Assembly (NCBI GenBank): GCA_963746775.1
Contig: CAVVCK010000001.1
Span: 339,050 to 403,049, forward strand
Direction of reading: 5' to 3'
Source: an uncultured bacterium
GTDB lineage: Bacteria; Patescibacteriota; JABMPQ01; CAVVCK01
Length of the DNA: 64,000 bases
Each line of letters begins with the position of its first letter. The stretch's first letter is position 1. The position numbers and the translations under genes were made by a program. The notes under the pieces were generated by a model that saw only the letters and a program-made list of their open reading frames with translations, was not told where the DNA came from and made no database searches. This document shows, one piece after another, positions 4,901 to 63,420 of the stretch.

Positions 4901-4962
4901 ATACATACAGGTTTGAAACCTAAACATATTTTGTACATACAGGTTTGAAACCTGTATCTACC
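4901..4962 (-). repeat. REP-like palindromic repeat family 1, two tandem units (ACATACAGGTTTGAAACCTGTAT) fused to the stop codon of the LCP gene
   Basis: Same ~26-bp unit is seen at 14801-14880, 22568-22652, 59694-59718 and 63343-63420. The last unit ends ...CCTGTATCTACC and overlaps the TAG stop. On the minus strand each unit starts with GTAG. Confidence 0.8.
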
Positions 4963-5996
4963 TACCTCAAATACTTCTCTACCATCTTCTCCTTCCCCTC
5001 TTCATCAATCACCCAAAAATACAAATTCTTTCCAAAATTTTCTACATACAAGGTTTCCCCATGTCCCGGAACAAAATCAGTTTTTATATCGCCTAAACTT
5101 AATTTTCCAAATCTTCTCACAAAAGTTGTCGCTCCAAACATTCCTGCTCTGGCAAAATCAATATTGATTTCAGCGTTATCACTTTCTTTCAAGTAATTAT
5201 AAACTTTCTGCGCAGTATCTTTATTTTTCATTTGACTTAAAACTGCTCTAAATACTTTCCTTTGATCATCAGTTCTAGCAAAGTCCCCTCCAGCTCTATA
5301 TCGATCACGCACCTGAGCTAGCGCTTTTTCCCCATCATAATACCCGTCATCAGTCCACACTCCACCTACCATATCCACAACATCTTTAAAGCTCTCAAAA
5401 GTAAATTCTACTGTGCCATTAATTTTTATACCTAAAAAATCTTCAATAGTCTTTTGGGTTAATTTAATATTACCAATACTAGATTTATCAGTTAAATCTC
5501 CATAAATATAAGCATGGGTAATTTTATCCAAACCATGTCCTTCAATATTTACCCGGCTATCTCTTGGAATGGTAATTAGGCTGGTTGGTTTACTAGGATT
5601 CTTGGGAATAGAAAAAATCATTAAAACATCAGAACGTGCCCGCTCCTCTCCCCTTCTATCACAACCTACAATTAAAATATTATATCGATCAGGCATTAGC
5701 GCATAAACAATTCCAAATAATAAAATTGGGATAATTATAATTAGAGGTAGGATTATTTTTAGGAATATTCGTCTTTTCTTTTTTTTCCCTTTGCCCGCCG
5801 TAGCTGCCTCCTTCGCCGAAGTAGCTACGGAGGCCGAGTTGGCGGAGGAGGGTTTGTCCGCCGAAGTTTTAACGAAGGATTTACCCGCTGTAGTTTTAAC
5901 AGAAGTAGACTTGTCCGCCACAGATTTGTCAAAAATAGATTCTTTTTTATTTATATTTTCTTCACTAACTTTTCCAAGCTTTATGATTTTTGGCAT
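4962..5996 (-). CDS. LytR-CpsA-Psr (LCP) family cell-envelope phosphotransferase
   Basis: N-terminal K/S-rich region, a TM segment, then the LCP core (ILIVGCDRRGEERARSDVLMIFSI...ITIPRDSRV). Confidence 0.8.
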   Translation of the reverse strand: MPKIIKLGKVSEENINKKESIFDKSVADKSTSVKTTAGKSFVKTSADKPSSANSASVATSAKEAATAGKGKKKKRRIFLKIILPLIIIIPILLFGIVYALMPDRYNILIVGCDRRGEERARSDVLMIFSIPKNPSKPTSLITIPRDSRVNIEGHGLDKITHAYIYGDLTDKSSIGNIKLTQKTIEDFLGIKINGTVEFTFESFKDVVDMVGGVWTDDGYYDGEKALAQVRDRYRAGGDFARTDDQRKVFRAVLSQMKNKDTAQKVYNYLKESDNAEINIDFARAGMFGATTFVRRFGKLSLGDIKTDFVPGHGETLYVENFGKNLYFWVIDEEGKEKMVEKYLR

Positions 5997-6026: not shown

Positions 6027-6090
6027 AGGTTGGTTTAAGTGAAACGAACCTAACATTCAATTGTTGGGTTTCTTAACTTCAACCCAACCT
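6027..6090. repeat. REP-like palindrome family 2, long variant (GTAGGTTGG...CCCAACCTAC)
   Basis: Inverted termini GTAGGTTGG and CCAACCTAC flank ~45 bp. It is related to the short family-2 copies at 49358, 51890 and 59626. Confidence 0.6.
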
Positions 6091-6931
6091 ACTTTATTTT
6101 TTTTGATTTTGATCCTATTTTAAAATTTTGTCCACTTACTACTTTTTTACCTGTTTTCTTTTCTAATTCCAAACGCGCATTTTTAGCTACTCTGCCACCC
6201 TTCTTAGCTGGACCTTTATTTTCTTTTAAACCTTTTGCCTCTACGGTTTCTGCGATTTGACGAGTAGAGAGTTCAGCTAAAGCAGTAAAAACTAATTCTG
6301 CATCGGTCATATGGTCACGCAAATTTTCTCTTTTTAGATTTTTTAAATTCTTATGTTCCCTGACTGATAATTCGCTCCATTCTCGATGAATAATATTAGT
6401 CAAAATAGCATATTCGTCTTTTTCCTTAACCTCATTATCTTTCCAATAATCCGTTAGTTTATTTCTGATTTCTTGTCCCATCATTCTTTGTTGAACCCAT
6501 TTCTTGCTTCTGCCCATTTTTTGCCAATAATCTCGAGAACGATTTAGGGCTTTTTCCGGATCATTTATTTCTTCTATGCGCTCATAACCTACCCTAGCTA
6601 ACCATAATTTTACCGGTTCGGCTTTAGGGCTGGGGATAGATTGAATTAGACGTAGTAGAGTTTCTGTATCGGCTGTATCAGTTTCACGCATTTTTCCATC
6701 TTCTGCTACCATTTTCAACCGGTGACATTTTGTCACCGCTTCACTTCCCTCTTTTTTAAGCCTTTCTGATAGTTTATTCCAATATTTTCTGACAGTTTGA
6801 TAATTAGGTTGTTCAATTAAAATCTGAACAATATCAATAATAGAAAAATACCATTTTTCTTTTTTCTCATCCCAAATCCGCCTAATTTTTTTATCTTTAA
6901 ATATGGCTAATTTTTGAGATTGTTTTTTCAT
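6089..6931 (-). CDS. DNA-damage-inducible protein D (DinD/Bro-N-like) family protein
   Basis: Strong resemblance to the DinD family (YFSIIDIVQIL, HRLKMVAEDGKMRETDTADTETLLRLIQSIPSPKAEPVKLWLARVGYERIEEI). Confidence 0.7.
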   Translation of the reverse strand: MKKQSQKLAIFKDKKIRRIWDEKKEKWYFSIIDIVQILIEQPNYQTVRKYWNKLSERLKKEGSEAVTKCHRLKMVAEDGKMRETDTADTETLLRLIQSIPSPKAEPVKLWLARVGYERIEEINDPEKALNRSRDYWQKMGRSKKWVQQRMMGQEIRNKLTDYWKDNEVKEKDEYAILTNIIHREWSELSVREHKNLKNLKRENLRDHMTDAELVFTALAELSTRQIAETVEAKGLKENKGPAKKGGRVAKNARLELEKKTGKKVVSGQNFKIGSKSKKIK

Positions 6932-6943
6932 GACTTTTTTTGA

Positions 6944-7489
6944 TTAACTATTAGATTCCGATAGTTCAGCGTAATTCACATGTATTTTTCTATATTTTTC
7001 TTTATAAATTTCAATAACACTCCTTTTGTCATGTTTGCTTGAATCAATGCCAAATTCTTGTAAAAATTTATCAACCTTTCTTTTATCTGATAAATTAAAT
7101 TTTACTTCCAAAAACATTCCTAGTTCCTTTGTAGTATCAAGATCAAAACGAATAAACTCATTTTTCCAAGTTTGGCGATATTTATGAAAGGTAAAAATTG
7201 GCAAATATCCCAGTCTCTCAAGAATAGACTGAACTTGATCAGCTCTTTGTATATCCGACTCAAAATGTTCCCACTCACCAGTTTTATTATCACGAATTTT
7301 CATATCTAATTTTTGTACACCTTGAGACTTCTTAATTCGCAAGATTGAATAAAAATTATCATTAGTATTTGGAACTTCAAAATATATATACGCATATTTA
7401 ACAGCAGGACCAAACTCAACATTTTTTACTTTTACCTTATTTTTAAAATCATCTTCTACCTGAAATTTATATTGAACTTTCTTTTCCAT
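6944..7489 (-). CDS. CYTH-domain protein (CyaB/thiamine-triphosphatase-like). Start re-called at the internal Met MEKKVQYKF.
   Basis: The ORF-track N-terminal extension is R-rich and overlaps the upstream terminator hairpin. Downstream of Met52 the protein shows an EVKFNL-type CYTH beta-barrel pattern. Confidence 0.45.
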   Translation of the reverse strand: MEKKVQYKFQVEDDFKNKVKVKNVEFGPAVKYAYIYFEVPNTNDNFYSILRIKKSQGVQKLDMKIRDNKTGEWEHFESDIQRADQVQSILERLGYLPIFTFHKYRQTWKNEFIRFDLDTTKELGMFLEVKFNLSDKRKVDKFLQEFGIDSSKHDKRSVIEIYKEKYRKIHVNYAELSESNS

Positions 7490-7577
7490 AAAATATTTGT
7501 TATTTATACTCAAAATCACAAGAACATTGTGAAAACCCCTCCTACCTCCCCTTGGTAAGGGGAGAATTAAAATTATT

Positions 7578-8804
7578 CTATTCATACCGCAGCGCCTCAA
7601 TCGGATTCTTTCTCGCTGCCTTAACTGCCGGAGCCACTCCAAATATTATACCTACTAAAACTGAAATAGAAAAAGCCAAAACCAAAGCATATAAAGTAAT
7701 TTGTGGCTCAATTGGTGAATATTTCGATATAAAGAATGATCCTACATAAGCAAGCCCTACTCCCAATCCTCCACCTATTAAACTTATCACTGTGGCTTCA
7801 ATTAAAAACTGAACCATGATATTGCCAGACGTTGCACCCAAAGCTTTTCTAATGCCAATCTCTCGAGTACGTTCTGTAACAGATACCAACATAATATTCA
7901 TAATACCAATGCCGCCAACCAATAAAGATATAGCGGCAATACCAGAAAGCAAAGTGGTAATTAAGCTAATTATTTGCTCAAACATAGCTAACATATCTTG
8001 TTGAGTCATCACAGAAAAATCTTCATTGCCTTCATGTCTTTCCAATAATAATTCTTTGATTTGATTTTGTACGCTGCCAACTTCATCTTTATTACGTGCT
8101 TGCATAGTAATACGATTCAATTTATTAGTTTCAAACATCTCCTCAGCTACTGTAATCGGAATTACCGCCATTAAATTAGCATCGATTCCTATGCTACTTA
8201 ATCCTTCAGTTTTCATAGTACCTACTACTTCAAATTCTTCTTTATTTATTTCTATCTTTTTTTCCAAAGGGTCTTCTTCTCCAAATAAATCTTTTACTAT
8301 AGTATCACCTATTACCACAATTTTATTTTTATCATTCATGTCTTGATCATCAATAAATCTTCCTCTATTTAAATTATAAAATCCAATGAACTGCAATGTA
8401 GGCTCAGACCCTACTAGCATAGGTACTGCTTTTTTGCCCTCATAAATAAAATTGCCACCCACAAACATAATAGAAGAAACATTTTCTACCCCCTCAATCT
8501 TTTCTTCAATAGATTTTTTATCATCCAAAGTTAAAGTGGAAATACCAGCCACTCCGGCCATAGAAGACATACCGCCGCCATTACCATCATTATTGCCAGC
8601 TACTTGTCCCGGTAATACTATTATTAAATTAGACCCAATAGCTTCAATTTCAGAAGCTACTCCCTTTTTAACTCCTTCACCCATAGCTAGCAAAGTAATT
8701 ACGGAAGTAACTCCGATAATAATGCCAAGCATAGTCAAAAAAGCTCTAATTTTGTTAGATAGAATTGACTTTACAGCTATTTTTAGATTTTCTAATATAA
8801 GCAT
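7578..8804 (-). CDS. ABC transporter permease (MacB/FtsX family)
   Basis: N-terminal TM segment, a large periplasmic domain, then a C-terminal 3-TM FtsX domain. Confidence 0.85.
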   Translation of the reverse strand: MLILENLKIAVKSILSNKIRAFLTMLGIIIGVTSVITLLAMGEGVKKGVASEIEAIGSNLIIVLPGQVAGNNDGNGGGMSSMAGVAGISTLTLDDKKSIEEKIEGVENVSSIMFVGGNFIYEGKKAVPMLVGSEPTLQFIGFYNLNRGRFIDDQDMNDKNKIVVIGDTIVKDLFGEEDPLEKKIEINKEEFEVVGTMKTEGLSSIGIDANLMAVIPITVAEEMFETNKLNRITMQARNKDEVGSVQNQIKELLLERHEGNEDFSVMTQQDMLAMFEQIISLITTLLSGIAAISLLVGGIGIMNIMLVSVTERTREIGIRKALGATSGNIMVQFLIEATVISLIGGGLGVGLAYVGSFFISKYSPIEPQITLYALVLAFSISVLVGIIFGVAPAVKAARKNPIEALRYE

Positions 8805-10647: not shown

Positions 10648-10679
10648 GAAATCCGAAACCCTATAGGATTTCGGATTCC
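10648..10679. repeat. Palindrome family 4 (AATCCGAAACCCTATAGGrTTTCGGATT)
   Basis: Near-perfect 32-bp palindrome between the DsbA-like and CcdA-like genes. A second copy is at 54621-54652. Confidence 0.7.
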
Positions 10680-14800: not shown

Positions 14801-14880
14801 GCACATACAGGTTTTAAACCTGCCTTGTACATACAGGTTTTAAACCTGCCTTGTACATACAGGTTTTAAACCTGTATCTA
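14801..14880 (-). repeat. REP-like family 1, three tandem units, fused to the gap stop codon
   Basis: ACATACAGGTTTTAAACCTG(CCTTGT) three times. The last unit ends CCTGTATCTAC. Confidence 0.8.
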
Positions 14881-15882
14881 CACCTTAATTCTACTCGCCT
14901 TTAATATATGCTCCAATAAAGTCCAAGAATATCCCATTTCGTTATCATACCAAGCTAAAATTTTTACCAAATCTCCATCTACAACATTGGTAAATTCACT
15001 ATCAACTATGGAAGGGCATTTATTTCCTACGATATCAGAAGAAACTAGAGGTACCCCAGATACTTTTATAATATTTTTCCATCTTGTTTCTTGTGATGCT
15101 TCTTCTAAAATTTTATTAACTTCTTCTTTGGATGTTTTCCTCTTAGCTATAAATGTAACATCAGCTATCGATCCACAAATATTAGGAACCCGAAGAGCTA
15201 GACCATCAAATAAATTTTCCAAAGATGTAACTACTTTCGTAACAGCAATAGCAGCGCCGGTTGTCGATGGAATAATATTTTCTGCTGCTGCTCTGCCACG
15301 ACGCATATCTTTTTTCTCCGAAGGACTATCAACCAAGCTTTGGGTTGCTGTATAGGCATGAACGGTATTGAGAATGGCTTTTTTTACACCTAATTTTTCC
15401 GATAAAATATCCATCACCGGTGCTACTGCATTAGTTGTACAAGAACCATTATTAGTAATTATATTGTCCTTTAATTTTTCTTCATTAATTCCTAATAGCA
15501 CTGTCTGCGCATCTTTAGAAGGAGCAGAAATAATTACTCTCTTTGCTCCTGCTCTAACATGTTTTTCCGCATCAGCTTTCTTGGTAAATACTCCTGTTGA
15601 TTCAATAACTACATCTATACCTAAATCTTTCCAAGGTAGCTTCTCCGGTTCTCTTTCTTGGCAAAATAATATTTCCTTGCCATCAACCATTAATTTGCCA
15701 TCACGGGTTTTAACATCTCCCTCATATTCCCCATAAACAGTATCGTAATCTAGAAGATAAGCTAAATTTTCTAAGTCTCCCAAATCATTTATACCAACAA
15801 TTTCTATTTCCGGATGCTGAAAAGCAAGACGAAAAAAGCCTCTTCCTATACGACCAAAGCCATTTATAGCTACTTTTATCAT
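14878..15882 (-). CDS. gap: Glyceraldehyde-3-phosphate dehydrogenase
   Basis: NAD-binding NGFGRIGR motif and the catalytic SCTTN motif. Confidence 0.9.
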   Translation of the reverse strand: MIKVAINGFGRIGRGFFRLAFQHPEIEIVGINDLGDLENLAYLLDYDTVYGEYEGDVKTRDGKLMVDGKEILFCQEREPEKLPWKDLGIDVVIESTGVFTKKADAEKHVRAGAKRVIISAPSKDAQTVLLGINEEKLKDNIITNNGSCTTNAVAPVMDILSEKLGVKKAILNTVHAYTATQSLVDSPSEKKDMRRGRAAAENIIPSTTGAAIAVTKVVTSLENLFDGLALRVPNICGSIADVTFIAKRKTSKEEVNKILEEASQETRWKNIIKVSGVPLVSSDIVGNKCPSIVDSEFTNVVDGDLVKILAWYDNEMGYSWTLLEHILKASRIKV

Positions 15883-16132: not shown

Positions 16133-17210
16133 TTACCGTTTAGAATCTGGTTGGTATTTAGAAATAATTTCAGGCATATTGGCCTGTTTTTTAATTGTTA
16201 ATTCAAGGGGATATTTACCATTTAGATATTTGAATTTCTGACTACAATCAGTATATTTTTTTGTTCTTCTACGGATTAAATAAGCATTAAGAAATCTTTC
16301 AGCATTCTTAAATGATTTGAATCCTTTAATACTTGTTAGTCTAGCGTTTAAATGTGAATTGAATAGTTCTATTAGATTAGTATCTCTAGGACAGTGGGGT
16401 ATATTTTGGTAAGTGAATAGGTTTTCTTCTTTCTTGTAGATATCTATTAGAACACTTTGTCTTAATAAATTCTTTCTCGCATACTTGGTAAATATATTAT
16501 GTAAAGATTTGTTTAATTCTTCTTTAGTTTTTTTCTCCTCTACTTTACTTTTAAAAATATATTCATTAAGCTTGTGAAAAAATAGTAGGTGTTGTTCTTC
16601 CGTCCTTATTCTTGTTTTTTGTCTTATGTTTTCTAGATAATGATTGTGGCAAAGCTGTATTTTGGCTTTAGGATAATAGTACAAAAGCCCTGGTTTTAGG
16701 GCAGGCAGTATATCGTCACAGATAACTACTTGTAGTGGATAGTTACAAGTCTTTAATAATCTAAAGTATCTTCTAAAGGCTTCTTCATTCTCTGAAGGAG
16801 AAAGTATTCCTACAGGAAGATCATGCTTTAGATAATCAATACCGTAAATGAACGGTATTTTTTTATGGTAGCCTTTTACTTTTATGAACTTACCATCAAC
16901 TACAATAACACCTGAGAAGCGATTGCAATAGCTCATTGTTAGCCAAGTGTTATTAGATAAGCTATTCATTTCTTCTTCTACCTGAAGAAAAACTTTAGCA
17001 GGAGATATATTATTCTCATCAGCTAGTTTTCTAAAAGATATTCCATCAACATGTTAAATCCATAACTTTTTCTTTTTACTCCGATGATCAATTGAAAATG
17101 AGCTTTTACATATTTTACAATAATATCTTTTCCTACCATCTCTGCTACCCCATTTAATAGTTCTTTTACTTTTACACTTAGGACACTTTAATTTACGTTT
17201 TTTTTGTCAT
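16133..17210 (-). pseudogene. IS1-family transposase (InsA-like Zn-finger N-terminus plus InsB-like DDE domain), disrupted
   Basis: The 278-aa ORF carries TNLIELFNSHLNARLTSIKGFKSFKNAERFLNAYL (compare IS1 InsB [27 protein letters not shown]...YL). Upstream in the same frame, the reading is continuous across a TAA at 17054-17056. A Zn-finger segment (KLKCPKCKSKRTIKWGSRDGRKRYYCKICKSSF) lies further 5' and is only in frame with the ATG at 17208-17210 if the A8 run at 17198-17205 is read as A7. Confidence 0.65.
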
Positions 17211-20190: not shown

Positions 20191-20213
20191 GGCAGGATAA
20201 GATCCTGCCCTAC
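20191..20213 (-). terminator. Palindrome family 3 (GTAGGGCAGGATCTTATCCTGCC + T-run on the minus strand); terminator after dfx
   Basis: GC-rich 7-8-bp stem followed by TTTTAT on the minus strand. A second copy at 59662-59684 follows the RND gene. Confidence 0.65.
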
Positions 20214-22457: not shown

Positions 22458-22567
22458 ATTTCTTATTAGTAATTATTACTAATTAAATATTATTACTATT
22501 AATATTTTATGTCAAGAAAATTTGTGGATAACTAAAAAATGGGTTATAAACCCATCTCTACGATATC

Positions 22568-22652
22568 GTACATGCAGGTTTGAAACCTGTATTCCCAAAT
22601 ATACGGGTTTTAAACCTGTATTCCTGTACATGCAGGTTTTAAACCTGCATCT
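22568..22652 (-). repeat. REP-like family 1, three tandem units, fused to the trxB stop codon
   Basis: TACATGCAGGTTTGAAACCTGTATTCC, ATACGGGTTTTAAACCTGTATTCC and TGTACATGCAGGTTTTAAACCTGCATCTACC. Confidence 0.8.
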
Positions 22653-23565
22653 ACCTCTTTCCCGCCAAATACCGCGCCACCTTCAACAAGGCCATACACC
22701 CCTGCCCCGCTGATATTACATATTGATATTCATGGCCTGAAGCAACATCACCAGCAGCATATATGCCTGGCACATTAGTTTGCATTTGACAATCAACTTG
22801 AATATGCCCATCTTCATCTAATTCTACTATATCTTTAAAAGACTCCGTATTGGGCCTACGGCCAATTTCTATAATTACTCCTCTAACATTTATCTCTTTT
22901 ACCACTCCTTCTTGTTCAAATTTTAAACCAGATACTATTTTTTCACCTAAAATTTCTTTGGTATCAACATTATATAATATTTCCACTTTAGGATCATTAA
23001 TTGTCCGTTCCATTAAATATTCATGGCCCATTAATTTATCATCACGTACTATCAAATAAATTTTGGAAGCAATATTTTTCATAAAATCAACTGCTTCCAT
23101 AGCTGAATTACCTCCACCAATCACAGCCACCGGCATATCAGGAAATAAGGGGCCATCGCAGATAGCACAATAAGTTACCCCCCGACGAGCAAATTTATCT
23201 TCTCCTGGCACATTTAATTTACGTGATTTAGATCCAGTCGTTATAATTATTGATTTTGTTCTATATTTACTTTTATCAGTAATAACTTCAAAATCTATCC
23301 CTTCTTTTCTGACACTTTTTACATATTCACTAACAATTTCTACTTGATTAATTTCCATTTGCTTCTTCATAATAGATCTCAATTCAATACCAGTCGTCTG
23401 GATAATGCCAGGATAATTTAATATTTCTCCACTAACTAGAAATTGACCACCAAAATCTGGTGCAATGATTTTATAATTCATTCTCTTGCGAGAAGCATAA
23501 ATAGCAGCCGTTAAGCCCGACATACCAGCACCAATAATAATTGTCTCTAATTTATTTTCTTTCAT
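22651..23565 (-). CDS. trxB: Thioredoxin-disulfide reductase
   Basis: FAD motif GAGMSGLTAA, redox-active CAICDG and NADPH-binding GGGNSA. Confidence 0.9.
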   Translation of the reverse strand: MKENKLETIIIGAGMSGLTAAIYASRKRMNYKIIAPDFGGQFLVSGEILNYPGIIQTTGIELRSIMKKQMEINQVEIVSEYVKSVRKEGIDFEVITDKSKYRTKSIIITTGSKSRKLNVPGEDKFARRGVTYCAICDGPLFPDMPVAVIGGGNSAMEAVDFMKNIASKIYLIVRDDKLMGHEYLMERTINDPKVEILYNVDTKEILGEKIVSGLKFEQEGVVKEINVRGVIIEIGRRPNTESFKDIVELDEDGHIQVDCQMQTNVPGIYAAGDVASGHEYQYVISAGQGCMALLKVARYLAGKR

Positions 23566-27092: not shown

Positions 27093-27114
27093 GTAGGGGC
27101 AGAACAGCCCCTAC
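27093..27114. repeat. Palindrome family 5, short form (GTAGGGGCAGAACAGCCCCTAC)
   Basis: 8-bp GC stem. The long form is at 30004-30032. Confidence 0.6.
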
Positions 27115-27281: not shown

Positions 27282-28508
27282 ATGAAAAATATACTTAAAA
27301 AATTACAAGAAGGACACATTAAGTTTCACGAAATAGAAAAATATGCCTCAGCCAAAGAAGCATCTGAAATTAGATTACTTTTTATTGAAAAATTAGCTAA
27401 AAATAACTATTCCGAATTAAAAAACTATAATTTAGATCCTAAATTATTACAAAATAAAAATATAGAAAATTTTATAGGCTCAACTGAATTACCCCTAGGA
27501 ATTGCCGGACCGATTAAAGTCAAAGGAGAAAATTCCAATGGAGAATATTTTCTACCACTCGCAACAACCGAAGGCGCACTCGTTGCAAGTGTTAGTAGAG
27601 GCTGTAAAGTTGTAAATTTATCAGGAGGAACAAAAACTGATTTAGAATATATTGGCACCACCAGAGCACCGCTTTTTAGTGTTAAAGATTTAAAAACTGC
27701 CAGAGAATTTATAAATTGGGTTAATAAAAATATTGCTAAACTTAAAGAAGTCGTGGAAAAAGTTGATCCTTTTGTAAAATTAATCAAGATTGAACCATTT
27801 TCTTCCGGAAAAAATATTTGGCTTAGAATATATTTTAATACTTATGACGCTATGGGTATGAATATGGCTACCCAGGCTTCTCAGAAAATAGGAGAATATG
27901 CTGAAAAATATTTTAAATCCGTAAAATTAATTGCTACTTCAGGTAATTTGTGTGTTGATAAAAAAGCAAGTTCCATAAATGCTATCCTTAGCCGCGGCCG
28001 CAAGGTCCAAGCCGAATGTTTTATTAAAAATGAAGTTATAAAAAAATATTTACACACTACCCCAGAAAAATTAGTAGAAGTAAATCACAAAAAAACTTGG
28101 CAAGGAGCAGTTCTCTCTGGCAGCATCGCCGCCAATGCTCATATCGCTAATATTATTGCAGCTATCTTTATTGCCACTGGACAAGATGCCGCTCAATTAG
28201 TTGAATCCAGTTCAGGTAATACTACTTTTGAATTAGACAAAGATGGAGTTTATACTTGCGTCACCCTGCCTTCTTTAATGATCGGCACCGTTGGCGGTGG
28301 CACAGGTTTACCTAAACAAAGTGAAGCTATTAATTTAATGTTAAAGAATATAGGATCGTCCAAAGAAAAATCTAAATTAAATCGTACTAATAAATTAGCA
28401 GAAATTATAGCTAGTGCTTGTCTTGCAGGCGAGATAAGTTTGCATGGAGCCTTGGCTTCTGGACATTTGGCTTCTTCTCATATGAAGTTGGGGAAGGGAT
28501 TTAAATAA
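27282..28508 (+). CDS. hmgA: Hydroxymethylglutaryl-CoA reductase
   Basis: HMGR catalytic-domain motifs (EGALVASVSRGCK, DAMGMNM, GTVGGGT). Confidence 0.85.
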   Translation: MKNILKKLQEGHIKFHEIEKYASAKEASEIRLLFIEKLAKNNYSELKNYNLDPKLLQNKNIENFIGSTELPLGIAGPIKVKGENSNGEYFLPLATTEGALVASVSRGCKVVNLSGGTKTDLEYIGTTRAPLFSVKDLKTAREFINWVNKNIAKLKEVVEKVDPFVKLIKIEPFSSGKNIWLRIYFNTYDAMGMNMATQASQKIGEYAEKYFKSVKLIATSGNLCVDKKASSINAILSRGRKVQAECFIKNEVIKKYLHTTPEKLVEVNHKKTWQGAVLSGSIAANAHIANIIAAIFIATGQDAAQLVESSSGNTTFELDKDGVYTCVTLPSLMIGTVGGGTGLPKQSEAINLMLKNIGSSKEKSKLNRTNKLAEIIASACLAGEISLHGALASGHLASSHMKLGKGFK

Positions 28509-28916
28509 ATGAACAATATTATTGAGATAATTATATCCACTATAATAAGTACTGGAATTATTGCCGGAGTAATTAACTATTGGTTCGACAAAAAACTACG
28601 CACACACGAAATAAAACTTAAAAAATATATCGAATTAATAGAAGAGCTGGCTAAACTTATAGGAAGTGAAGCAAACTGGGATGATTTAAGGCCGCTACTT
28701 AATGAAGCTCTACTTTTTGCTTCCGATAATGTGGTCAAAGAAATATTGAAATTTAATATCCGGTTCAATGATAAAAGTAAAGATGCAAAAGAAGGTAAAT
28801 TTCAAATGACAGAGAAAGATATACAACCTTTAATTATTGCTATACGAGAAGAATTATATTTAAAATCAAAATCTATTAAAGAAAGTGGATTAACATTTTT
28901 TCGAAAAATAAATTGA
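28509..28916 (+). CDS. Hypothetical 135-aa protein (N-terminal TM) inserted between HMGR and HMGS
   Basis: ORF whose start overlaps the hmgA stop (TAAATG). Confidence 0.5.
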   Translation: MNNIIEIIISTIISTGIIAGVINYWFDKKLRTHEIKLKKYIELIEELAKLIGSEANWDDLRPLLNEALLFASDNVVKEILKFNIRFNDKSKDAKEGKFQMTEKDIQPLIIAIREELYLKSKSIKESGLTFFRKIN

Positions 28917-28917
28917 A

Positions 28918-29994
28918 ATGAAACCAAAAAACACCGTCGGCCTAATTTCCTACGGCACCGACATTCCTCAAAATAGAATAAAGATTAAAGATATAGCTCT
29001 CGCTTGGAATAAAGATCCTAAAGCAATAGAAGCTTCTTTAGGTGTGATTGAAAAAGCAATACCTTCTAAAGATGAAGACACTGTAACACTTGCTACTAAT
29101 GCAGCTCTTGAAGCAATGGAAAAATTAAAAAATAAACCAAATATAGGAGCAATTTATACCGGCTCAGAAAGTCATCCTTATGCAGTTAAATCCACTTCCT
29201 CAATAGTCGGTGAAGCCTTAGGTATTGGTAATAATTATACAGCCGCTGACCTAGAGTTTGCTTGCAAGGCTGGAACAGCTGGTGTACAAATGATAACAGG
29301 AATGGTCTCTTCTGGTATGATTGAATACGGAATAGCTATTGGAGCAGACACAGCTCAAAGTAAACCTGGCGATGCACTTGAATACGCTGCCGGTGCCGCC
29401 GGTGCATCATTTATTATTGGATCAAAGAAAGAAGAAATTATCGCTAAAATTTTATATACCGAAAGCTTTACATCCGATACTCCAGACTTCTGGCGCCGAG
29501 AACATCAAGTCTATCCTTCCCACGCTGGCCGCTTCTCCGGAGAGCCTGCGTACTTTAAACATATAATTAGAGCAGTTCAGAATACTTTAAAAAATACCAA
29601 ATCCCGAAGGGTCGCCGGAGAGGCGACAAAAATATCTGATTTTGATCATGTTGTTTTTCATATGCCTAATGCTGCCTTCCCCCGCAAAGCTGCTAAAATC
29701 TTAGGAGTTACAGATAAACAATTACAAGCAGGCTTTATCGGACCATATTTAGGAAATAGCTATTCTGCCTGTTCTTTGGTAGGTTTAGCCTCCGTTCTAG
29801 ACCAAGCTAAACCCAAAGATAAAATATTATTATGCTCATACGGATCAGGTAGTGGCAGTGATTGTTTTGTAATGGAAGTAACAGAGAATATTAAGAAGCT
29901 TAAGAAGACAAAAACAGTTCAAGATAAAATTGATAATAAAGAATATATTAGTTATACAGAATATTTAAAGAATATGGGGAAATTGAAGATGTAA
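28918..29994 (+). CDS. Hydroxymethylglutaryl-CoA synthase (archaeal-type)
   Basis: Active-site Cys context LEFACKAGTAG and the C-terminal SYGSGSG motif. Confidence 0.8.
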   Translation: MKPKNTVGLISYGTDIPQNRIKIKDIALAWNKDPKAIEASLGVIEKAIPSKDEDTVTLATNAALEAMEKLKNKPNIGAIYTGSESHPYAVKSTSSIVGEALGIGNNYTAADLEFACKAGTAGVQMITGMVSSGMIEYGIAIGADTAQSKPGDALEYAAGAAGASFIIGSKKEEIIAKILYTESFTSDTPDFWRREHQVYPSHAGRFSGEPAYFKHIIRAVQNTLKNTKSRRVAGEATKISDFDHVVFHMPNAAFPRKAAKILGVTDKQLQAGFIGPYLGNSYSACSLVGLASVLDQAKPKDKILLCSYGSGSGSDCFVMEVTENIKKLKKTKTVQDKIDNKEYISYTEYLKNMGKLKM

Positions 29995-30003
29995 ACGCTA
30001 GAT

Positions 30004-30032
30004 GTAGGGGCAGAACACTGTTCTGCCCCTAC
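30004..30032. repeat. Palindrome family 5, long form (GTAGGGGCAGAACA CTG TGTTCTGCCCCTAC)
   Basis: Perfect 13-bp arms between HMGS and the thiolase. Confidence 0.7.
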
Positions 30033-30046
30033 AATAAATAAAATCA

Positions 30047-31189
30047 ATGAAAGAAATCTACATAAAAGGCACCGGCCTAACAAAATTCGGTGAAGTTTGG
30101 AATAAAGATTTAAGAGATCTTGCTTTTGAGGCGGGAATAAAAGCTATTAAAGACGCTAAAATTGATTTGCAAGAAATCGATGCTATTTATGTTGCTAATA
30201 TGAAAGCCGGAGAATTCGCCGGACAAGATCACCTGGGAGCCTTAGTTTCAACTATTTTTAATTTAGATATACCAGCTTTCCATATAGAAGCTGCTTGTGC
30301 TTCCGGAGGTGTAGCTATAAACCAAGCCTATCTGAGTTTGCTATCTGGAAAATACAAAAATATCTTAGTCCTTGGAGTTGAGAAAATGACTGACCAAGAT
30401 GCAACCAATACTACTAAAGGATTAGCCGGAGCTGCTGACGAAGAATGGGAAGCACACTACGGCGCAACCTTCCCCTCCCTTTACGCCATGATCGCTCAAG
30501 AACATATGCGTAGATACAAAACCATCAGAAAAGATTTAGCTCTTATCGCTTGTAAAAATCATCACAACGCCACTTTTAATGAATACGCTCAATACCAAAA
30601 AGAAATAACCGTTGATAATGTCTTAAATGCTTCGCCCATCGCTGAACCTTTAGGATTGTTAGATTGCTCCCCTATCACTGATGGTGCTGCAGCAGTTATT
30701 TTGTCAAACAACAGAAAAAGTAAAGTTAAATTAATAGCCTCAGAAGTTACTACCAGTACTCTAGCCCTTCATGATAGAAAAGATATTACAACCCTAGATG
30801 CAGCCATTAAAGCTTCCCAGAAAGCTTATCAGTCCATCAATATTAAACCACAAGATATAGACATAGCCGAAGTACATGATTGTTTTACTATTGCCGAACT
30901 TCTAGCTTATGAAGATTTGGGCTTCTGTAAAAAAGGTGAAGGAGCAAAATTAATCAGATCAGGTAAATTAAATTTAGATGGATCACTACCTATCAATACT
31001 TCCGGTGGACTTAAAGCCTGTGGCCATCCAGTAGGTGCAACTGGTATTAAACAAGTCATAGAAATAGCTACTCAACTAGAAGGTAAAGCTGGAAAACGAC
31101 AAGTTAAGAAAAATTTAAAATACGGGCTAACACATAATATTGGTGGCAGTGGTGCCACAGCTGTAGTAAATATTTTAACCAAATCATAA
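30047..31189 (+). CDS. Archaeal-type thiolase (acetyl-CoA C-acetyltransferase / SCP-x-like)
   Basis: Thiolase fold with catalytic Cys context EAACASGG and the C-terminal GHPVGATG motif. Confidence 0.8.
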   Translation: MKEIYIKGTGLTKFGEVWNKDLRDLAFEAGIKAIKDAKIDLQEIDAIYVANMKAGEFAGQDHLGALVSTIFNLDIPAFHIEAACASGGVAINQAYLSLLSGKYKNILVLGVEKMTDQDATNTTKGLAGAADEEWEAHYGATFPSLYAMIAQEHMRRYKTIRKDLALIACKNHHNATFNEYAQYQKEITVDNVLNASPIAEPLGLLDCSPITDGAAAVILSNNRKSKVKLIASEVTTSTLALHDRKDITTLDAAIKASQKAYQSINIKPQDIDIAEVHDCFTIAELLAYEDLGFCKKGEGAKLIRSGKLNLDGSLPINTSGGLKACGHPVGATGIKQVIEIATQLEGKAGKRQVKKNLKYGLTHNIGGSGATAVVNILTKS

Positions 31190-31587
31190 TGTATAAAGGT
31201 TCATCGCCTAAATCCTGGCGAAAATATAAAACTAAATATAGACTACTGGGCAATCAAGGAACAAAATCAGGTAAAAAATATTATCCACCTGTTTTTGTAT
31301 CTAAAAAAAATCCCTCAGAAAAATTAAAAGAATATAAATTTAAACCAGAAGGAAAATTAATCACTTGGTCTATTGTTCACGGCGCACCTAAGGGCTATGA
31401 AGAATACGCACCCTATATCATTGGTATAATAGAACTAGAAGAGGGTGAACGAATAACCTCTCAAATAGTTAATGTAAAAAAATCACAATTAAAATACGGC
31501 CTTAAATTGAGAGCCGTCTTTAGAAAAATATATCAGGATGGTGATAAGGGAATTATTGATTATGGATTGAAGTTTACTTTAAAATAA
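31189..31587 (+). CDS. DUF35-family OB-fold protein (partner of archaeal thiolase/HMGCS complex); Zn-ribbon cysteines absent
   Basis: Start overlaps the thiolase stop (ATAATG). OB-fold-like core (GKLITWSIV...YIIGIIELEEGERITSQI). Confidence 0.55.
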   Translation: MYKGSSPKSWRKYKTKYRLLGNQGTKSGKKYYPPVFVSKKNPSEKLKEYKFKPEGKLITWSIVHGAPKGYEEYAPYIIGIIELEEGERITSQIVNVKKSQLKYGLKLRAVFRKIYQDGDKGIIDYGLKFTLK

Positions 31588-43477: not shown

Positions 43478-46417
43478 TTATTTATTTTTTAACTCATAAA
43501 TCCACTTTGGCAACAAAAAATAAGCAGTACATAGAAAAGAAAATATTAATAAAACAATCACATTCCCTCCGGCCTGAGGAATATTTCCGCCAATTTTATT
43601 TGTAATACTATCTAATATCCCTCCTTCTCCATTTCTTATATCGCTTTGATAACGAGGCAACACTCTATACCCGGAGGAAGTCTCACTCTCAATCCCTAAG
43701 ATTGTTATTTTATCACCCTTTTTCATTTCTGGTTTTTCTATACCAGTATTGGTATTAATATAAACCTTAGCCTGTCCGCTGCCATCATCTACATAAAAAA
43801 CATTGCCAGATGTTTTAGCTATTTCACCAGCAATTTTAATTAATTGTCCCTCATAATCTTCTTTTATGTCTCCTGTTTTAATTTCCCTAGGCTGCGGAGC
43901 AGATTTATGGCTAAAAATTTGAACATCTTCTTTGGCTGATACATTTATTTTCTTTTCATTACCACTTTCTGATGTTTTGCCAAAAACAGTTACTTCATCG
44001 CCTAATTCTAATTTGGGGAAATCTTCTTTAGAAAAATATATTTGCATACCAGCACTTGAATCCTGAATATAAAAAGTTTTCTTGCTAAATAATCCCGGCT
44101 CAGATATTACTGTGCCTTTTATTTTTACTTCTGTATTTTTTTCTTTAGCTCGGGCTTCTTTGATAGAAATAATACCTAAAGCATTACTATCTGACTGCTC
44201 ACTACTTTCTTCAGAATTAGTTGTTGTATTAGAAGTGTTATTACTATCTTCATTAGTAGCATCATTTTCTTCACTGTTTGTATCTTCATTACCCTCTTCA
44301 TCTTCATTTGAAATAATATTTTCTTTTCCTGGTGTCGGCGTGTTAGTCCACTCAAAATTATTTTCATCATTTAGAGCATAAGCATATCCTTCTTTGGCAC
44401 TTTCTTTATAATAAACTTCTGAAGCAATCTCACTATCAGGATAAATTAATCTTGCTTTCTCATCACTATTATTTAAGGAAAGTTTGGTTTCCCCTCTGTA
44501 AAACACTAAATATTCATTAGCTTTAATTGCTTTATCTGTGATAGTATATGGACTACTACCACCATCAGTATCATCAATTTGCCATGATTCTAAATCAACC
44601 TCTTCGCTTCCTTTATTATAAATTTCAATAAATTCTCCTTCGTCAGCTGTATCACTACCTGCTGGATTAGGTAATACTTCCGTTATAATTACATCCTTGG
44701 AAAAAGATTCAGAAATATTTTCTTCTGAATTTGTATTCGTGGTTGTATTAGAATCAGAACTTGGCGTTGTTTCATCTTCTGTTTCTGGCTCTATAATTTT
44801 AACTTTTAGAGTATCGCTATCTTCTCCTCCCCGGCTGTCACTAACAATAAGTTTAACTGTGAAACTGCCTGCCTTAGAATAGACATGCGTTGTTTTATTA
44901 CCTTCACCCTTATTTCCATCGCCGAAATCCCATTTGTAAGCTAATTCATCTCCATCAGAATCAGAGGATTTACTGCCATCAAAAGTAATTTTCTCATTAA
45001 TCTCTGCTTCCATATCGTTCCCTAATAAAGCTTCTGGATTATGATTTTCTGAAATTATTTGGTTCATTTGACCCGGAGTCGGCTCTATACTCCACTGCCA
45101 TAAACTTTCTAATAAATTATATGATTGCCCCTCGGGTGCTGATTCGGAATAAGTAACTGTGTCTAATAAATTACTATTGGGCTGATGCAAGTTTACGGTT
45201 TCCCCACCTGTATTATTTAGAGATATCCCACTAATATTTCTATAAATTATAAAATACCCCTGAGCAGCTATTGTTGTAGAAGTAAAATCATCACCAGAAA
45301 TAACATAATTTGTACTAGAATCACCCACTTGCCAATTCTTTAGATCAACTGCTTCATTGCTTTTATTATAAAGCTCAATATATTCTCCCTCGCTATCACT
45401 ACCAATTGGATTGGGTAAAATTTCATTAATTATTATCTGATCAGAATAAGTAGGTTCTATAATTTCAATTTCTATACTATCTTCTGCTTCATTAGAAGCG
45501 CTATCTATAACACTAATCGGTATTTCATAATTTCCAAAATTAATATTAACAGGTAGGCTATATTCATAGTTATAAATACCATCACTAGCCTCTATATCAC
45601 CATTAGTCCCATCATCAAACATTGATTGAGTATCACTGCCGCCTATGGCTGACAAATCAAGATTAACTGATTCAATATCGCTTAAACCATCTTCATCGGA
45701 AATTTCAGCTGTAAATAATATAGAATTTTCTTCACCTAAAATAAATGAATTGGGATTGGCTTCCAAAGATATTATTTCAGGCGATTCATTTACATATTCA
45801 TTAGAAATACCATAAGTTGGACTATTAAATTCTTGCCAATCACTAAGTTCATTGTTATCTTCACCATCAGCTATTAAACCTAAGGAATGTCCACTAGAAA
45901 TATCTTCTAAATATTCACCATCTTCCCAAATTCCAGCCAAAACTGCATTATTGTCATCCGTTCCGCTATCTCCACCCCAAGCCATAAAATCAACTATGGT
46001 TGTACTATCAAATACTGTTGAATTATTATAAATAGATACTTGATCTGAAGTATTAGCATAATGCGATTCATGTCCATAATTAGCATATATTATTCCTAAA
46101 CTATCGGAAAAATCTAAATCTTCTGTCCCACTATCTGATCTAATTATTAAAAAATTATTAGCTGGCAATATAACTGAGCATGTAAAAATATATTCAGGTG
46201 CTGCATCTTCATCTGTTATTGCCCAATCGTTTAAATCAACATCATCTGCTCCAGCATTATATAATTCCACCCACTCTACTCCATCTACCGGATCATACAT
46301 AACTTCATTAATTTTTATATTGAAATCAGCTGCTTTTATAACTTTCACCGGTAAAATAAAAAAATTTCCTAAAGAAATTAAGGAAATCATAAAGACATTA
46401 AAAAGTTTTTTGATCAT
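43478..46417 (-). CDS. Giant secreted protein with three lamin-tail (LTD) domains, a PKD domain, a C-terminal OB-fold and a TM anchor
   Basis: Signal peptide. LTD motifs are NIKINEVMYDP...EWVELYN, IIINEILPNP...EYIELYN and VIITEVLPNP...EFIEIYN. PKD motif is WDFGDGN. OB-fold is near FYIQDSSAGMQIYF. A hydrophobic C-terminus follows. Confidence 0.6.
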   Translation of the reverse strand: MIKKLFNVFMISLISLGNFFILPVKVIKAADFNIKINEVMYDPVDGVEWVELYNAGADDVDLNDWAITDEDAAPEYIFTCSVILPANNFLIIRSDSGTEDLDFSDSLGIIYANYGHESHYANTSDQVSIYNNSTVFDSTTIVDFMAWGGDSGTDDNNAVLAGIWEDGEYLEDISSGHSLGLIADGEDNNELSDWQEFNSPTYGISNEYVNESPEIISLEANPNSFILGEENSILFTAEISDEDGLSDIESVNLDLSAIGGSDTQSMFDDGTNGDIEASDGIYNYEYSLPVNINFGNYEIPISVIDSASNEAEDSIEIEIIEPTYSDQIIINEILPNPIGSDSEGEYIELYNKSNEAVDLKNWQVGDSSTNYVISGDDFTSTTIAAQGYFIIYRNISGISLNNTGGETVNLHQPNSNLLDTVTYSESAPEGQSYNLLESLWQWSIEPTPGQMNQIISENHNPEALLGNDMEAEINEKITFDGSKSSDSDGDELAYKWDFGDGNKGEGNKTTHVYSKAGSFTVKLIVSDSRGGEDSDTLKVKIIEPETEDETTPSSDSNTTTNTNSEENISESFSKDVIITEVLPNPAGSDTADEGEFIEIYNKGSEEVDLESWQIDDTDGGSSPYTITDKAIKANEYLVFYRGETKLSLNNSDEKARLIYPDSEIASEVYYKESAKEGYAYALNDENNFEWTNTPTPGKENIISNEDEEGNEDTNSEENDATNEDSNNTSNTTTNSEESSEQSDSNALGIISIKEARAKEKNTEVKIKGTVISEPGLFSKKTFYIQDSSAGMQIYFSKEDFPKLELGDEVTVFGKTSESGNEKKINVSAKEDVQIFSHKSAPQPREIKTGDIKEDYEGQLIKIAGEIAKTSGNVFYVDDGSGQAKVYINTNTGIEKPEMKKGDKITILGIESETSSGYRVLPRYQSDIRNGEGGILDSITNKIGGNIPQAGGNVIVLLIFSFLCTAYFLLPKWIYELKNK

Positions 46418-49302: not shown

Positions 49303-49357
49303 GGTTTTATGGTAGGATTATAACATAAATTTTATAATTTTATTGATATTTTATATG

Positions 49358-49387
49358 TAGGTTGGGTTGAGTACTCGAAACCCAACA
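49358..49387. repeat. REP-like palindrome family 2 (GTAGGTTGGGTTGAGTACTCGAAACCCAAC)
   Basis: 8-bp stem GTTGGGTT/AACCCAAC. Copies are at 51890 and 59626. Confidence 0.75.
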
Positions 49388-51321: not shown

Positions 51322-51846
51322 ATGAGAATGTTAAAATTTCCTTTATTTCGTCAAACAAAAAGCTACGACTGTGGTGCTATTACCACTCAAATGGTTTTGG
51401 CTTATTTTGGTATAAATATCAGGGGTGATATTATTATTAAAGAAGTTAAAACCAATAAATCGGGTACTAAAATTGAAAATATTATAAAAGTATTAAAAAA
51501 GTATAAATTAAAATATAAAGCAGGCCAATCAGACATCAAAAATCTAAAAAAATTTCTTAAAGAAAATAAGCCAATTATTATTCCCCTGCAAGCCTGGACA
51601 AACAAAAAGGAAATTAATTGGCAGAATGATTGGTCAGACGGACACTATGTTGTCGCTATAGGCTATGATAAAAATAAAATTTACTTTGCTGATCCTTCTT
51701 CTATTTATAAAACCTATTTAACTTATACTGATCTAGAAAAAAGATGGCATGATATAAGCGTAGATGGTAAAAAATATATTCATTTTGGAATTGCTGTTTC
51801 AGGCAAAAGAAAATATACTCGTCATAAAATAATACATATTGATTAA
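51322..51846 (+). CDS. Papain-like (C39-like) cysteine peptidase domain protein
   Basis: N-terminal QTKSYDCGAITTQM catalytic Cys context and a downstream His (GHYVVAIGYD). Confidence 0.5.
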   Translation: MRMLKFPLFRQTKSYDCGAITTQMVLAYFGINIRGDIIIKEVKTNKSGTKIENIIKVLKKYKLKYKAGQSDIKNLKKFLKENKPIIIPLQAWTNKKEINWQNDWSDGHYVVAIGYDKNKIYFADPSSIYKTYLTYTDLEKRWHDISVDGKKYIHFGIAVSGKRKYTRHKIIHID

Positions 51847-51889: not shown

Positions 51890-51919
51890 GTAGGTTGGGT
51901 TGAGTATTCGAAACCCAAC
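51890..51919. repeat. REP-like palindrome family 2 copy
   Basis: GTAGGTTGGGTTGAGTATTCGAAACCCAAC. Confidence 0.75.
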
Positions 51920-51947
51920 CATTAAAATATATTAATAAAAAATAATT

Positions 51948-54652: not shown

Positions 54653-54693
54653 TGCATCAAATTTCTTTAGTTTTCAACAATTTAACAATTTAT

Positions 54694-59625: not shown

Positions 59626-59718
59626 GTAGGTTGGGTTGAGTACTCGAAACCCAACAAAAAAGGCAGGATACGATCCTGCCCTACAATATTGTTGTACATA
59701 CAGGTTTCAAACCTGTAT
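59626..59718 (-). repeat. Cluster of three different REP-like palindromes between the RND gene and msrB: family 2 (59626-59655), family 3 (59662-59684) and family 1 (59694-59718)
   Basis: GTAGGTTGGGTTGAGTACTCGAAACCCAAC, GGCAGGATACGATCCTGCCCTAC and GTACATACAGGTTTCAAACCTGTAT lie consecutively, 6 bp after the RND stop. Confidence 0.8.
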
Positions 59719-63342: not shown

Positions 63343-63420
63343 ATACATGCAGGTTTTAAATCTGTATTCCAATATATAACCTATATTCCAATATATACAG
63401 GTTTCAAACCTGTATCTACC
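63343..63420 (-). repeat. REP-like family 1, two units with a degenerate middle unit, fused to the rlmN stop codon
   Basis: ATACATGCAGGTTTTAAATCTGTATTCC ... ATATACAGGTTTCAAACCTGTATCTACC. The overlapping ORF 63289-63498 is rejected. Confidence 0.75.

Follow-up and report, generated by a model that had tools for sequence, protein, structure and literature searches.

The window analysed here is a 64-kb stretch of the 547,309-bp contig CAVVCK010000001.1 from an uncultured bacterium of the Patescibacteriota. It carries a family of short palindromic repeats, designated family 1, whose 11 units form five dispersed clusters. Within this genome the analysis covered the window, and the five clusters in these 64 kb are a sample. 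All of the clusters are extragenic and each lies directly 3' of a minus-strand gene. The five upstream genes are LCP, gap, trxB, the gene of an RND pump and rlmN. Pfam identified their products as LytR_cpsA_psr, GAPDH, a thioredoxin-reductase-type flavoprotein, an AcrB-type RND pump and a radical-SAM RlmN fragment, respectively. The positions of all clusters and units are given in Table 1.

Repeat units and clusters

The core sequence ACAGGTTTNAAACCTGT matches the window at 11 sites when up to two mismatches are allowed. The expected number is 0.01, based on dinucleotide-preserving shuffles, none of 100 of which reached 11 matches. The 21-mer ATACAGGTTTNAAACCTGTAT, searched with up to three mismatches, identifies the identical 11 sites in the window. 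Both the five loci and the identities of the upstream genes had been proposed earlier by a model that was given only the sequence (hereafter, the sequence-only reading), and both were confirmed. Tandem Repeats Finder reported the gap array at 14803-14874 with a period of 26, 2.8 copies and 100% matches, and the trxB array at 22570-22647 with a period of 29, 2.7 copies and 79% matches. Every unit is arranged head-to-tail, in a single orientation within its array. Arrays contain no more than three units, and the linkers between the hairpin cores are ~9-30 nt long and are partly repeated themselves. The interior copies in the gap array are a recent local tandem duplication.

The sequences flanking the five clusters are mutually unrelated. 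Thus, the family is not one duplicated segment, a possibility that had been raised in the sequence-only reading. That reading had also stated that the repeats always have the same orientation on minus-strand transcripts. This is correct as a fact, but it is weak evidence when taken alone because 40 of the 60 genes in the window are on the minus strand. The window has a GC content of 31%, and its GC skew is uniform throughout. In addition, the junction between the gap stop codon and the unit is reproduced in an independent Logan short-read assembly of the same organism, L011 (ERR11571143), so the repeat is not an assembly artefact. The L011 contig ends 33 nt past the gap stop, within the array. 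Family 1 units thus break short-read assemblies of this lineage, and such breaks may be a reason why the closest relatives appear only as contigs of 1-7 kb.

Unit structure and predicted folding

On the transcribed strand, the gene-proximal unit (head unit) of four clusters reads GTAG-AT(A/G)CAGGTTT-N-AAACCTG(T/C)AT-(G/A)TA(C/T). The stem was originally described as 7 bp in length. Instead, it comprises nine perfect base pairs closed by a 3-nt loop, with three further pairs (GUA/UAC) past a G/G mismatch. In four of the five clusters, the GTAG tetranucleotide of the head unit directly adjoins the stem (distance 0 nt). For the head units, predicted folding energies lie between -12.5 and -16.9 kcal/mol and z-scores between -4.6 and -6.1, and the z-scores of the predicted folds overall range from -3.8 to -8.8. 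Owing to the self-complementarity of each unit, a whole array can alternatively be folded as a single nested hairpin, with predicted energies of -25 to -51 kcal/mol and with UAG at the base.

All five gene-proximal units have perfect stems. The interior and distal units are more degenerate, and the stem mismatches are confined to these copies, which carry GGAAT, AGAAAT or CAAGG where the head unit has GTAG. The sequence-only reading held that every unit starts with GTAG, which proved incorrect, as the tag is found only on the gene-proximal unit and is missing from the unit at RND. The interior units of this small sample may lack the tag as a result of local duplications that excluded it.

Position relative to stop codons

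At gap, trxB and rlmN, the stop codon of the upstream gene is the TAG within the GTAG of the head unit. At LCP, the stop TAG is followed at once by GTAG (TAGGTAGAT). At RND, the stop is TAA and the unit begins 6 nt downstream, with AGAAAT in place of GTAGAT and no GTAG. The earlier description, in which the terminal copy always ends ...CCTG(T/C)ATCTACC and overlaps or abuts the stop codon, therefore stands at four of the five loci (in the form ...CCTG(T/C)ATCTAC), but not at RND, where the unit ends ...CCTGTATTTCTAATTA. In all four tagged clusters, the GTAG end faces the upstream stop. The five clusters all lie between unidirectional genes, and 0 nt separate the unit from the upstream stop except at RND, where the gap is 6 nt. 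Spacing to the downstream start codon is variable: it ranges from 46 to ~115 nt at four loci, and at the fifth a small open reading frame (ORF) lies ~90 nt away.

When translation of the fused head units is continued in frame after the stop, the sequence reads TAG ATA CAG GTT followed by TAA or TGA, which places a second in-frame stop in the loop. The RND unit lies in the same frame, with its loop TGA in frame with the TAA stop. The window contains ten TAG stops, half of which are supplied by, or directly abut, a GTAG hairpin. The base before the stop is G at all five hairpin-fused TAG stops, compared with 5 of the 48 TAA stops in the window.

The units have no U-tract, and none was called terminator-like on the transcribed strand. 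An intrinsic (Rho-independent) terminator was rejected for this reason. A CRISPR array, in which repeats of 24-48 nt alternate with unique spacers of regular size, usually alongside a leader and cas genes, was also rejected, given the short and partly repeated linkers, the arrays of at most three decaying units and the failure to find a cas domain in the window. The sequence-only reading had likewise noted that there is no T-run and that the repeats look like neither classical terminators nor CRISPR arrays. Separate canonical terminators are located after two of the arrays. The one after RND (59682-59660) was called by the terminator scan, and the one after trxB (22533-22561, T6) was read directly and is followed by a fur promoter, TTGACA-17-TAATAT (22515-22487). 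No promoter-like or terminator-like site was predicted in the LCP-ABC and gap-pfkB gaps, and both gene pairs are tightly linked in relatives. Thus, the LCP and gap arrays are probably intercistronic.

Two further candidates were considered for the units. An integron attC site was rejected because the flanks are syntenic housekeeping genes. A tRNA-like reading, with the loop as an anticodon (UNA), was rejected because Rfam RF00005 finds only Pro and Leu tRNAs. ARAGORN called a tRNA-Ser(tga) at 59655-59742 on the minus strand, over the RND unit and its terminator and overlapping the 3' end of the RND gene. The putative T-loop of this call, ATCGTAT, is non-canonical. The call is probably a false positive produced by two neighbouring hairpins, and it could propagate via automatic annotation.

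Filled and empty sites in relatives

The nearest named relatives of the window GAPDH, TrxB and RND proteins are metagenome-assembled genomes of Parcubacteria/Paceibacterota/Patescibacteria. Comparison with orthologous loci indicates that the units were gained at gene 3' ends which are compact and repeat-free in syntenic relatives. For example, the gap site is empty in L013 (85% amino acid identity), where TAG is followed by 37 nt and then the pfkB start, and also in L015 (72%) and L016 (83%). The LCP site is empty in L015, in which the protein ends at the same C-terminal residue position, the stop is TAA and the ABC gene follows after a spacer of 16 nt. The rlmN and RND sites are empty in L033 (RND 68%).

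At trxB, units are present in two of five relative lineages, with differing copy numbers. L028 (84%) has one unit flush with the stop (ATG TAG C TATAGGTTTCAAACCTGTA), followed by the orthologous native terminator. L024/L025 (76%) have a decayed head unit (GCG TAG ATACAGGTTTAAAA...) plus a perfect GACAGGTTTCAAACCTGTC. The site is empty in L029/L030, L026 and L032. The position relative to the stop codon, for which the sequence-only reading had suggested a check in related genomes, is thus kept at trxB in L028 and L024/L025, but the units are missing at gap, LCP, rlmN and RND. The TrxB proteins of the window and of the relatives end at one alignment column, and the element therefore sits exactly at the native stop; in the window this stop is the TAG of the head unit, 22651-22653. 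Immediately before the stop, the three filled lineages have AGG, ATG or GCG as the final sense codon. The residue differs and the final G is constant, which indicates that GTAG is preserved at this site. The C-terminus is not fixed at every locus. The window RlmN is one residue shorter than that of its relative (GER* vs GEDK*) and the window GAPDH is two residues longer, so a unit can shift the C-terminus slightly.

A hidden Markov model built from the 11 units and run over all of the fetched relatives' loci found no diverged copies beyond those in L024/L025 and L028. Public collections were also scanned for exact patterns. The GTDB species representatives, scanned with ATRCAGGTTTNAAACCTGYAT, gave 10 singletons in unrelated taxa, which is approximately the chance level, and the organism or its repeat is thus not represented there. 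The JGI metagenomes, scanned with GTACATRCAGGTTTNAAACCTG, gave one contig, L012, which encodes a flagellin and a Germane-domain protein. L012 is not a relative from the Candidate Phyla Radiation (CPR), and the match was attributed to chance. The IMG/VR viral contigs gave five singletons with mismatched stems, which were treated as chance matches as well. Because these scans gave only chance-level singletons, family 1 is lineage-restricted.

The sequence TGTAGAAT, which looks like an extended -10 promoter element, was observed just past the gap stop in L013 (2471) and the trxB stop in L026 (~10916). Both of these sites are unit-free, so GTAG can adjoin these stops without any hairpin.

Other GTAG-headed hairpins in the window

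The window was screened for hairpins with perfect stems of at least 7 bp. GTAG stands at the 5' foot of 16 of the 42 hairpins found, compared with 1.7 expected at random positions. Family 2, GTAG-GTTGGGTT-N10-AACCCAAC, has four copies, three on the plus strand and one on the minus strand, all of which carry the tag. Unlike the family 1 tag, the family 2 tag has no complement. Family 3, GTAG-GGCAGGAT-N3-ATCCTGCC followed by a T-run, consists of two true terminators, both of which are orthologously conserved in relatives. Family 4 is a GTAGGGGCAGAAC palindrome with two copies. Two of these further repeated sets have no orthologues among the relatives' loci compared, and one of the two also donates a TAG stop.

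Table 1. Family 1 units and other GTAG-headed hairpins in the 64-kb window.
Feature	Position	Strand	Description
Cluster 1 (LCP)	4901-4962	-	2 units
Family 1 head after LCP	4933..4961	-	GTAG-ATACAGGTTT-C-AAACCTGTAT-GTAC; LCP stop 4962-4964 adjoins GTAG; predicted -14.9 kcal/mol, z -5.5
Family 1 distal unit after LCP	4901..4932	-	Degenerate TTAGGTTT-C-AAACCTGT, no GTAG
Cluster 2 (gap)	14801-14881	-	3 units, period 26
Family 1 head after gap	14853..14881	-	gap stop is its TAG, 14878-14880; in-frame TAA in loop
Two interior units after gap	14801..14852	-	Period 26, mutually 100% identical; CAAGG replaces GTAGAT
Cluster 3 (trxB)	22568-22654	-	3 units, period 29
Family 1 head after trxB	22626..22654	-	GTAG-ATGCAGGTTT-A-AAACCTGCAT-GTAC; compensatory G-C pair
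Two interior units after trxB	22568..22625	-	Period 29; 5' flank GGAAT; one mismatch each
Native trxB terminator, downstream of array	22533..22561	-	GTAGAG-ATGGGTT-TAT-AACCCAT-TTTTTT; orthologue in L028
Cluster 4 (RND), family 1 single unit	59694..59718	-	1 unit; perfect stem, AGAAAT for GTAG; TAA stop 59725-59727; ends ...CCTGTATTTCTAATTA
RND terminator, family 3	59660..59684	-	GTAG-GGCAGGAT-CGT-ATCCTGCC-TTTTTT; orthologous GTAG-headed terminator in L033
Cluster 5 (rlmN)	63343-63419	-	2 units and an internally deleted remnant
Family 1 head after rlmN	63391..63419	-	rlmN stop is its TAG, 63416-63418; in-frame TGA in loop
Distal unit and remnant after rlmN	63343..63390	-	ACAGATTT-A-AAACCTGC; internally deleted remnant GGAATATAGGTTATATATT
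Family 2	6063..6092	-	BRO-N gene (6089-6931) stops at its TAG, 6089-6091
Family 2	49357..49386	+	GTAG-GTTGGGTT-GAGTACTCGA-AACCCAAC; divergent intergenic region
Family 2	51890..51920	+	43 nt past TAA stop of Peptidase_C39 gene (51322-51846)
Family 2	59626..59655	+	Antisense to RND-msrB transcription unit, adjoins RND terminator
Family 3	20191..20213	-	GTAG-GGCAGGAT-CTT-ATCCTGCC-TTTTAT; desulfoferrodoxin gene terminator; L024 orthologous hairpin without GTAG
Family 4	27093..27114	.	GTAGGGGC-AGAACA-GCCCCTAC, GTAG on both strands
Family 4	30003..30033	.	TGTAGGGGCAGAAC-ACT-GTTCTGCCCCTACA, between HMG-CoA synthase and thiolase genes

A long palindromic terminator, AGGAATCCGAAACCC-TATA-GGGTTTCGGATTCCT (54620-54653), is found near base-for-base in L013 (7145-7178), and a shorter related copy is located at 10650-10677. 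These may represent another repeated hairpin family, without GTAG.

Several genes close to the hairpins were also noted. The GTAGGGGCAGAAC palindromes flank and interrupt (27093, 30003) a mevalonate block on the plus strand (27282-31587), which encodes HMG-CoA reductase, a 135-aa unknown protein, an HMG-CoA synthase-like protein, a thiolase and an OB-fold protein (OB_ChsH2_C). The block is on the strand opposite to most genes, has a GC content of 0.36 and is syntenic in L026 and L029. A 408-aa and 135-aa pair between two GTAGGGGCAG hairpins was considered as a candidate for a REP-associated tyrosine transposase (RAYT) or TnpB and was rejected, as it consists of the HMG-CoA reductase and the unknown protein of this mevalonate operon. 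A BRO-N gene and a CYTH-domain gene (6089-7642, minus strand) lie between an FtsX/MacB permease and LCP. The permease and LCP are adjacent in L015, so the pair looks like a two-gene insertion. A truncated IS256/Mutator transposase (16133-16969, minus strand; profile positions 203-369 of 379) lies between iPGM and gap, and at this position L015 has an unrelated 179-aa ORF. Between rlmN and RND there is a small ORF of ~70 aa (window ~62980-63190, minus strand; L033 5649-5870), which belongs to no Pfam family, has kept its position and falls below the 80-aa cut-off used for ORFs. The TrxB-like protein (22651-23565, minus strand) is 60-68% identical to DPANN-labelled proteins (Aenigmarchaeota, Woesearchaeota, Nanoarchaeota), beyond a few CPR relatives, which suggests gene exchange between CPR and DPANN. 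Unrelated to the repeats, a 979-aa protein (43478-46417, minus strand) has three lamin-tail domains, a PKD domain and an OB-fold/BOF domain, and is a typical large CPR surface protein.

Comparison with known repeat systems

The GTAG-tagged superfamily of repetitive extragenic palindromic (REP) elements is characterized by stems of 5-13 bp and loops of 2-20 nt, with several families per genome (Di Nocera et al. 2013, PMC3733652). The GTAG termini of these elements often supply TAG stops, REPs between unidirectional genes hug the 3' end of the upstream ORF while the downstream distance varies, and REP clusters reiterated in tandem are frequent (PMC3733652). An operational definition requires GTAG or GTGG 0-2 nt 5' of a fully paired stem of 7-20 nt with a loop of 2-5 nt (PMC6006769). 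The head units of family 1 fall within this definition and within the stem and loop ranges of PMC3733652. Family 1 is like the superfamily in that it is a short stem-loop with GTAG at one end, in a genome with several such families (PMC3733652). It is also like the superfamily in lying flush with the 3' end of the upstream ORF, in the use of TAG as a stop, in its tandem clusters and in its lineage-specific presence or absence. The closest subtype is the short, perfectly palindromic "group 3" REPs of, for example, Pseudomonas and Stenotrophomonas (PMC8266576). Unlike the published REP families, family 1 has a CPR host at 31% GC and AT-rich stems. REPs from CPR or Patescibacteria are not mentioned in the published surveys PMC3733652, PMC6006769 and PMC12306157, and a literature search found nothing relevant. 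The sequence-only reading regarded the fixed phase relative to stop codons as unusual. This view was not sustained, because such a phase is described for GTAG REPs (PMC3733652), and stop-proximal REPs that act on translation are published as well (Liang et al. 2015), according to the summary in PMC12306157. Stop-codon donation by a GTAG REP is already published, and the present find is a new example in an unusual host.

Experiments in E. coli showed that REPs within 15 nt of a stop codon cause ribosomes to stall and reduce expression through down-regulated translation (Liang et al. 2015, summarised in PMC12306157). Like the E. coli elements in that summary, family 1 places a stable hairpin 0-6 nt after the upstream stop, within the transcript. 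The consequences predicted for family 1, ribosome stalling at termination and altered mRNA fate, are shared with them. Unlike the E. coli elements as summarised there, the family 1 element contains the stop codon, which can enter the base of the stem.

Family 1 also has features in common with other systems. Like bacterial interspersed mosaic elements (BIMEs), it is made up of clustered intergenic REP units joined by short linkers. However, REP and inverted REP alternate in BIMEs, whereas the units of each family 1 array are all head-to-tail, and a BIME was rejected on this basis. Thus, where the sequence-only reading proposed a REP/BIME-type element, the REP part stands (tag, stem, multiple copies, extragenic position, presence or absence in relatives, and other GTAG families) and the BIME part does not. 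Like the ends of IS200/IS605 elements, family 1 has a sub-terminal hairpin preceded by a 4-nt motif, and its strand-specific, single-orientation pattern is compatible with single-stranded DNA transposition. By the IS200/IS605 logic of a tetranucleotide guide and target, polar head-to-tail arrays would result if units inserted time after time beside a tetranucleotide that is retained. Unlike IS200/IS605 elements, family 1 has a unit of ~30 nt and no distinct left and right ends, and no such transposase gene was found in the window. The mycobacterial interspersed repetitive units (MIRUs) are tandem units in intercistronic gaps that are oriented with transcription and overlap the upstream stop. 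They measure 46-100 bp, lack a palindromic structure and overlap the start codon of the downstream gene as well. Family 1 and MIRUs are alike in their tandem, oriented, stop-overlapping units, but they differ in that the distance from family 1 units to the downstream start is variable.

Proposed explanation

Based on these sequence features, family 1 probably represents lineage-specific, GTAG-tagged, REP-type non-autonomous repeats in a Parcubacteria/Paceibacterota (CPR) genome, spread by a RAYT. GTAG is the motif read by TnpAREP, the REP-associated Y1 transposase, and is thought to resemble the IS200/IS605 guide sequence (PMC8266576). The units would have spread as single-stranded hairpins processed by an HUH/Y1 enzyme (RAYT/TnpAREP) reading GTAG, whose gene would lie elsewhere in the genome or may since have been lost. 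Slippage or unequal exchange would then have enlarged the arrays. Because the tag itself contains TAG, the units would become fused exactly to stop codons. In spacers of 16-37 nt, only insertions flush with the stop would spare the downstream ribosome-binding site as well as the upstream ORF. Each head unit would form a hairpin in the mRNA (-12 to -17 kcal/mol, predicted) that begins at the stop codon. By analogy with E. coli REPs, this hairpin would block 3'-5' exonucleases and stabilise the upstream cistron. A hairpin within 15 nt of the stop may also slow terminating ribosomes and so tune expression of the upstream gene. By this analogy, 3'-end protection and ribosome pausing by the units are both plausible.

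Several observations weigh against this explanation. GTAG is present on only 4 of the 11 family 1 units, all of them head units, whereas published REP families tag >90% of their members. In addition, family 1 arrays are purely head-to-tail, a form which is rare in published families, where head-to-head and tail-to-tail dimers predominate (Di Nocera et al., PMC3733652). Base pairing is predicted between the G-T-A of the family 1 tag and the T-A-C of the tail, whereas the tag of the superfamily is described as unpaired. Pfam gave no Y1/RAYT (PF01797-type) hit among the ~53 ORFs of the window, and there was no PF01797-type label among the Pfam labels of ~150 kb of relatives' loci. In REP/RAYT systems, the genome has a cognate RAYT gene that typically lies between copies of its REPs, an arrangement termed a REPtron. 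The conserved terminators of family 3 indicate, from sequence comparison, that some GTAG hairpins are old fixtures and not mobile copies. There are only five clusters in 64 kb, and since all of them lie 3' of minus-strand genes and the GC skew is uniform, the direction of transcription is confounded with that of replication. Lastly, covariation is weak, with two compensatory pairs that 27-37 of 500 shuffles equal, and the degenerate copies show no G-U bias on the transcribed strand. Thus, RNA-level selection cannot be distinguished from DNA-level selection.

Alternative explanations

It is unlikely that the units are terminator-derived hairpins without a dedicated transposase, in which an ancestral trxB 3' hairpin was copied to other gene ends by microhomology-mediated template switching or recombination at TAG/TA, the copies were amplified by slippage and GTAG was retained only as a carrier of the stop codon. 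This explanation would agree with the status of trxB as the oldest site, common to three lineages, and with the second L024 unit, which occupies the position of the window's native trxB terminator. That terminator (GTAGAG-ATGGGTTTATAACCCAT) resembles the unit, family 3 provides conserved GTAG-headed terminators, the interior gap copies are a plain tandem duplication and there is no RAYT gene in the window. However, family 2 carries GTAG on all four copies, one at a stop and three on the other strand, so the tag is not kept merely as a stop. The four independent junctions share an identical G-TAG-AT join, which looks site-specific, and the units lack the T-run of a terminator. It is quite unlikely that GTAG acts as both guide tag and host stop, with the amber stop as a docking site in a minimal, RAYT-free CPR genome, which would be a mode of REP spread targeted to stop codons. 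Each insertion would then regenerate the G-TAG target, giving polar arrays with the newest, perfect copy at the stop and older, decaying copies behind it, and the element would be coupled to termination through UAG at the hairpin base and a back-up UAA or UGA in the loop. A perfect tagged head with a decayed tail fits repeated insertion at GTAG, but the linkers between units do not fit the simple version.

A classical MITE (miniature inverted-repeat transposable element), derived from a DDE-type insertion sequence (IS) with two terminal inverted repeats and TA or TAG-like targets, is improbable. The unit does consist of two 10-nt inverted arms, GTA is found on both flanks of several arrays (GTAG ... 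GTAC/GTAT) and the truncated IS256/Mutator transposase lies in the window. The unit of ~30 nt with a centre of 1-3 nt is nevertheless far below the known size of MITEs, and the single RND unit has no matching flanks. Target-site duplication by the flanking GTA was rejected, because GTA and TAC prolong the palindrome as complementary sequences and are not direct duplications. The half-site ACAGGTTT occurs only twice elsewhere, both times inside genes, and no matching IS end was seen. The perfect palindrome ACAGGTTT-N-AAACCTGT is operator-like, and several neighbouring genes are redox-related (trxB, fur, msrB, rubrerythrin). It is still very improbable that the units are 17-bp operators for a dimeric regulator of the downstream genes (ABC ATPase, pfkB kinase, fur, msrB, and the small ORF with the RND pump), since their position is fixed to the upstream stop while the distance to the downstream start varies, the sites are missing from orthologous promoters in relatives, the tandem units decay within arrays and the fur promoter lies beyond a separate terminator at trxB-fur. 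In Neisseria, inverted pairs of DNA uptake sequences (DUS) double as terminators, and the inverted 8-mers 3' of genes seen here resemble such pairs. An origin as paired DUS-like motifs is extremely improbable, however, as the window shows no enrichment of the half-sites on their own (outside the palindromes, ACAGGTTT and AAACCTGT are found only at 28302 and 42828) and the family is absent from close relatives.

Implications

REPs have been studied almost wholly in Proteobacteria and a few other phyla, and a CPR host is an incremental extension of this range. In ultra-small genomes with spacers of 16-37 nt, selfish hairpins would be expected to be purged. In the window, the units lengthen some intercistronic gaps threefold or more in apparent operons (LCP-ABC and gap-pfkB). 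The presence or absence of units is a potential strain-level marker. If the RNA-level effects described in E. coli apply here, the units could set the relative expression of core genes, for example those of GAPDH and thioredoxin reductase.

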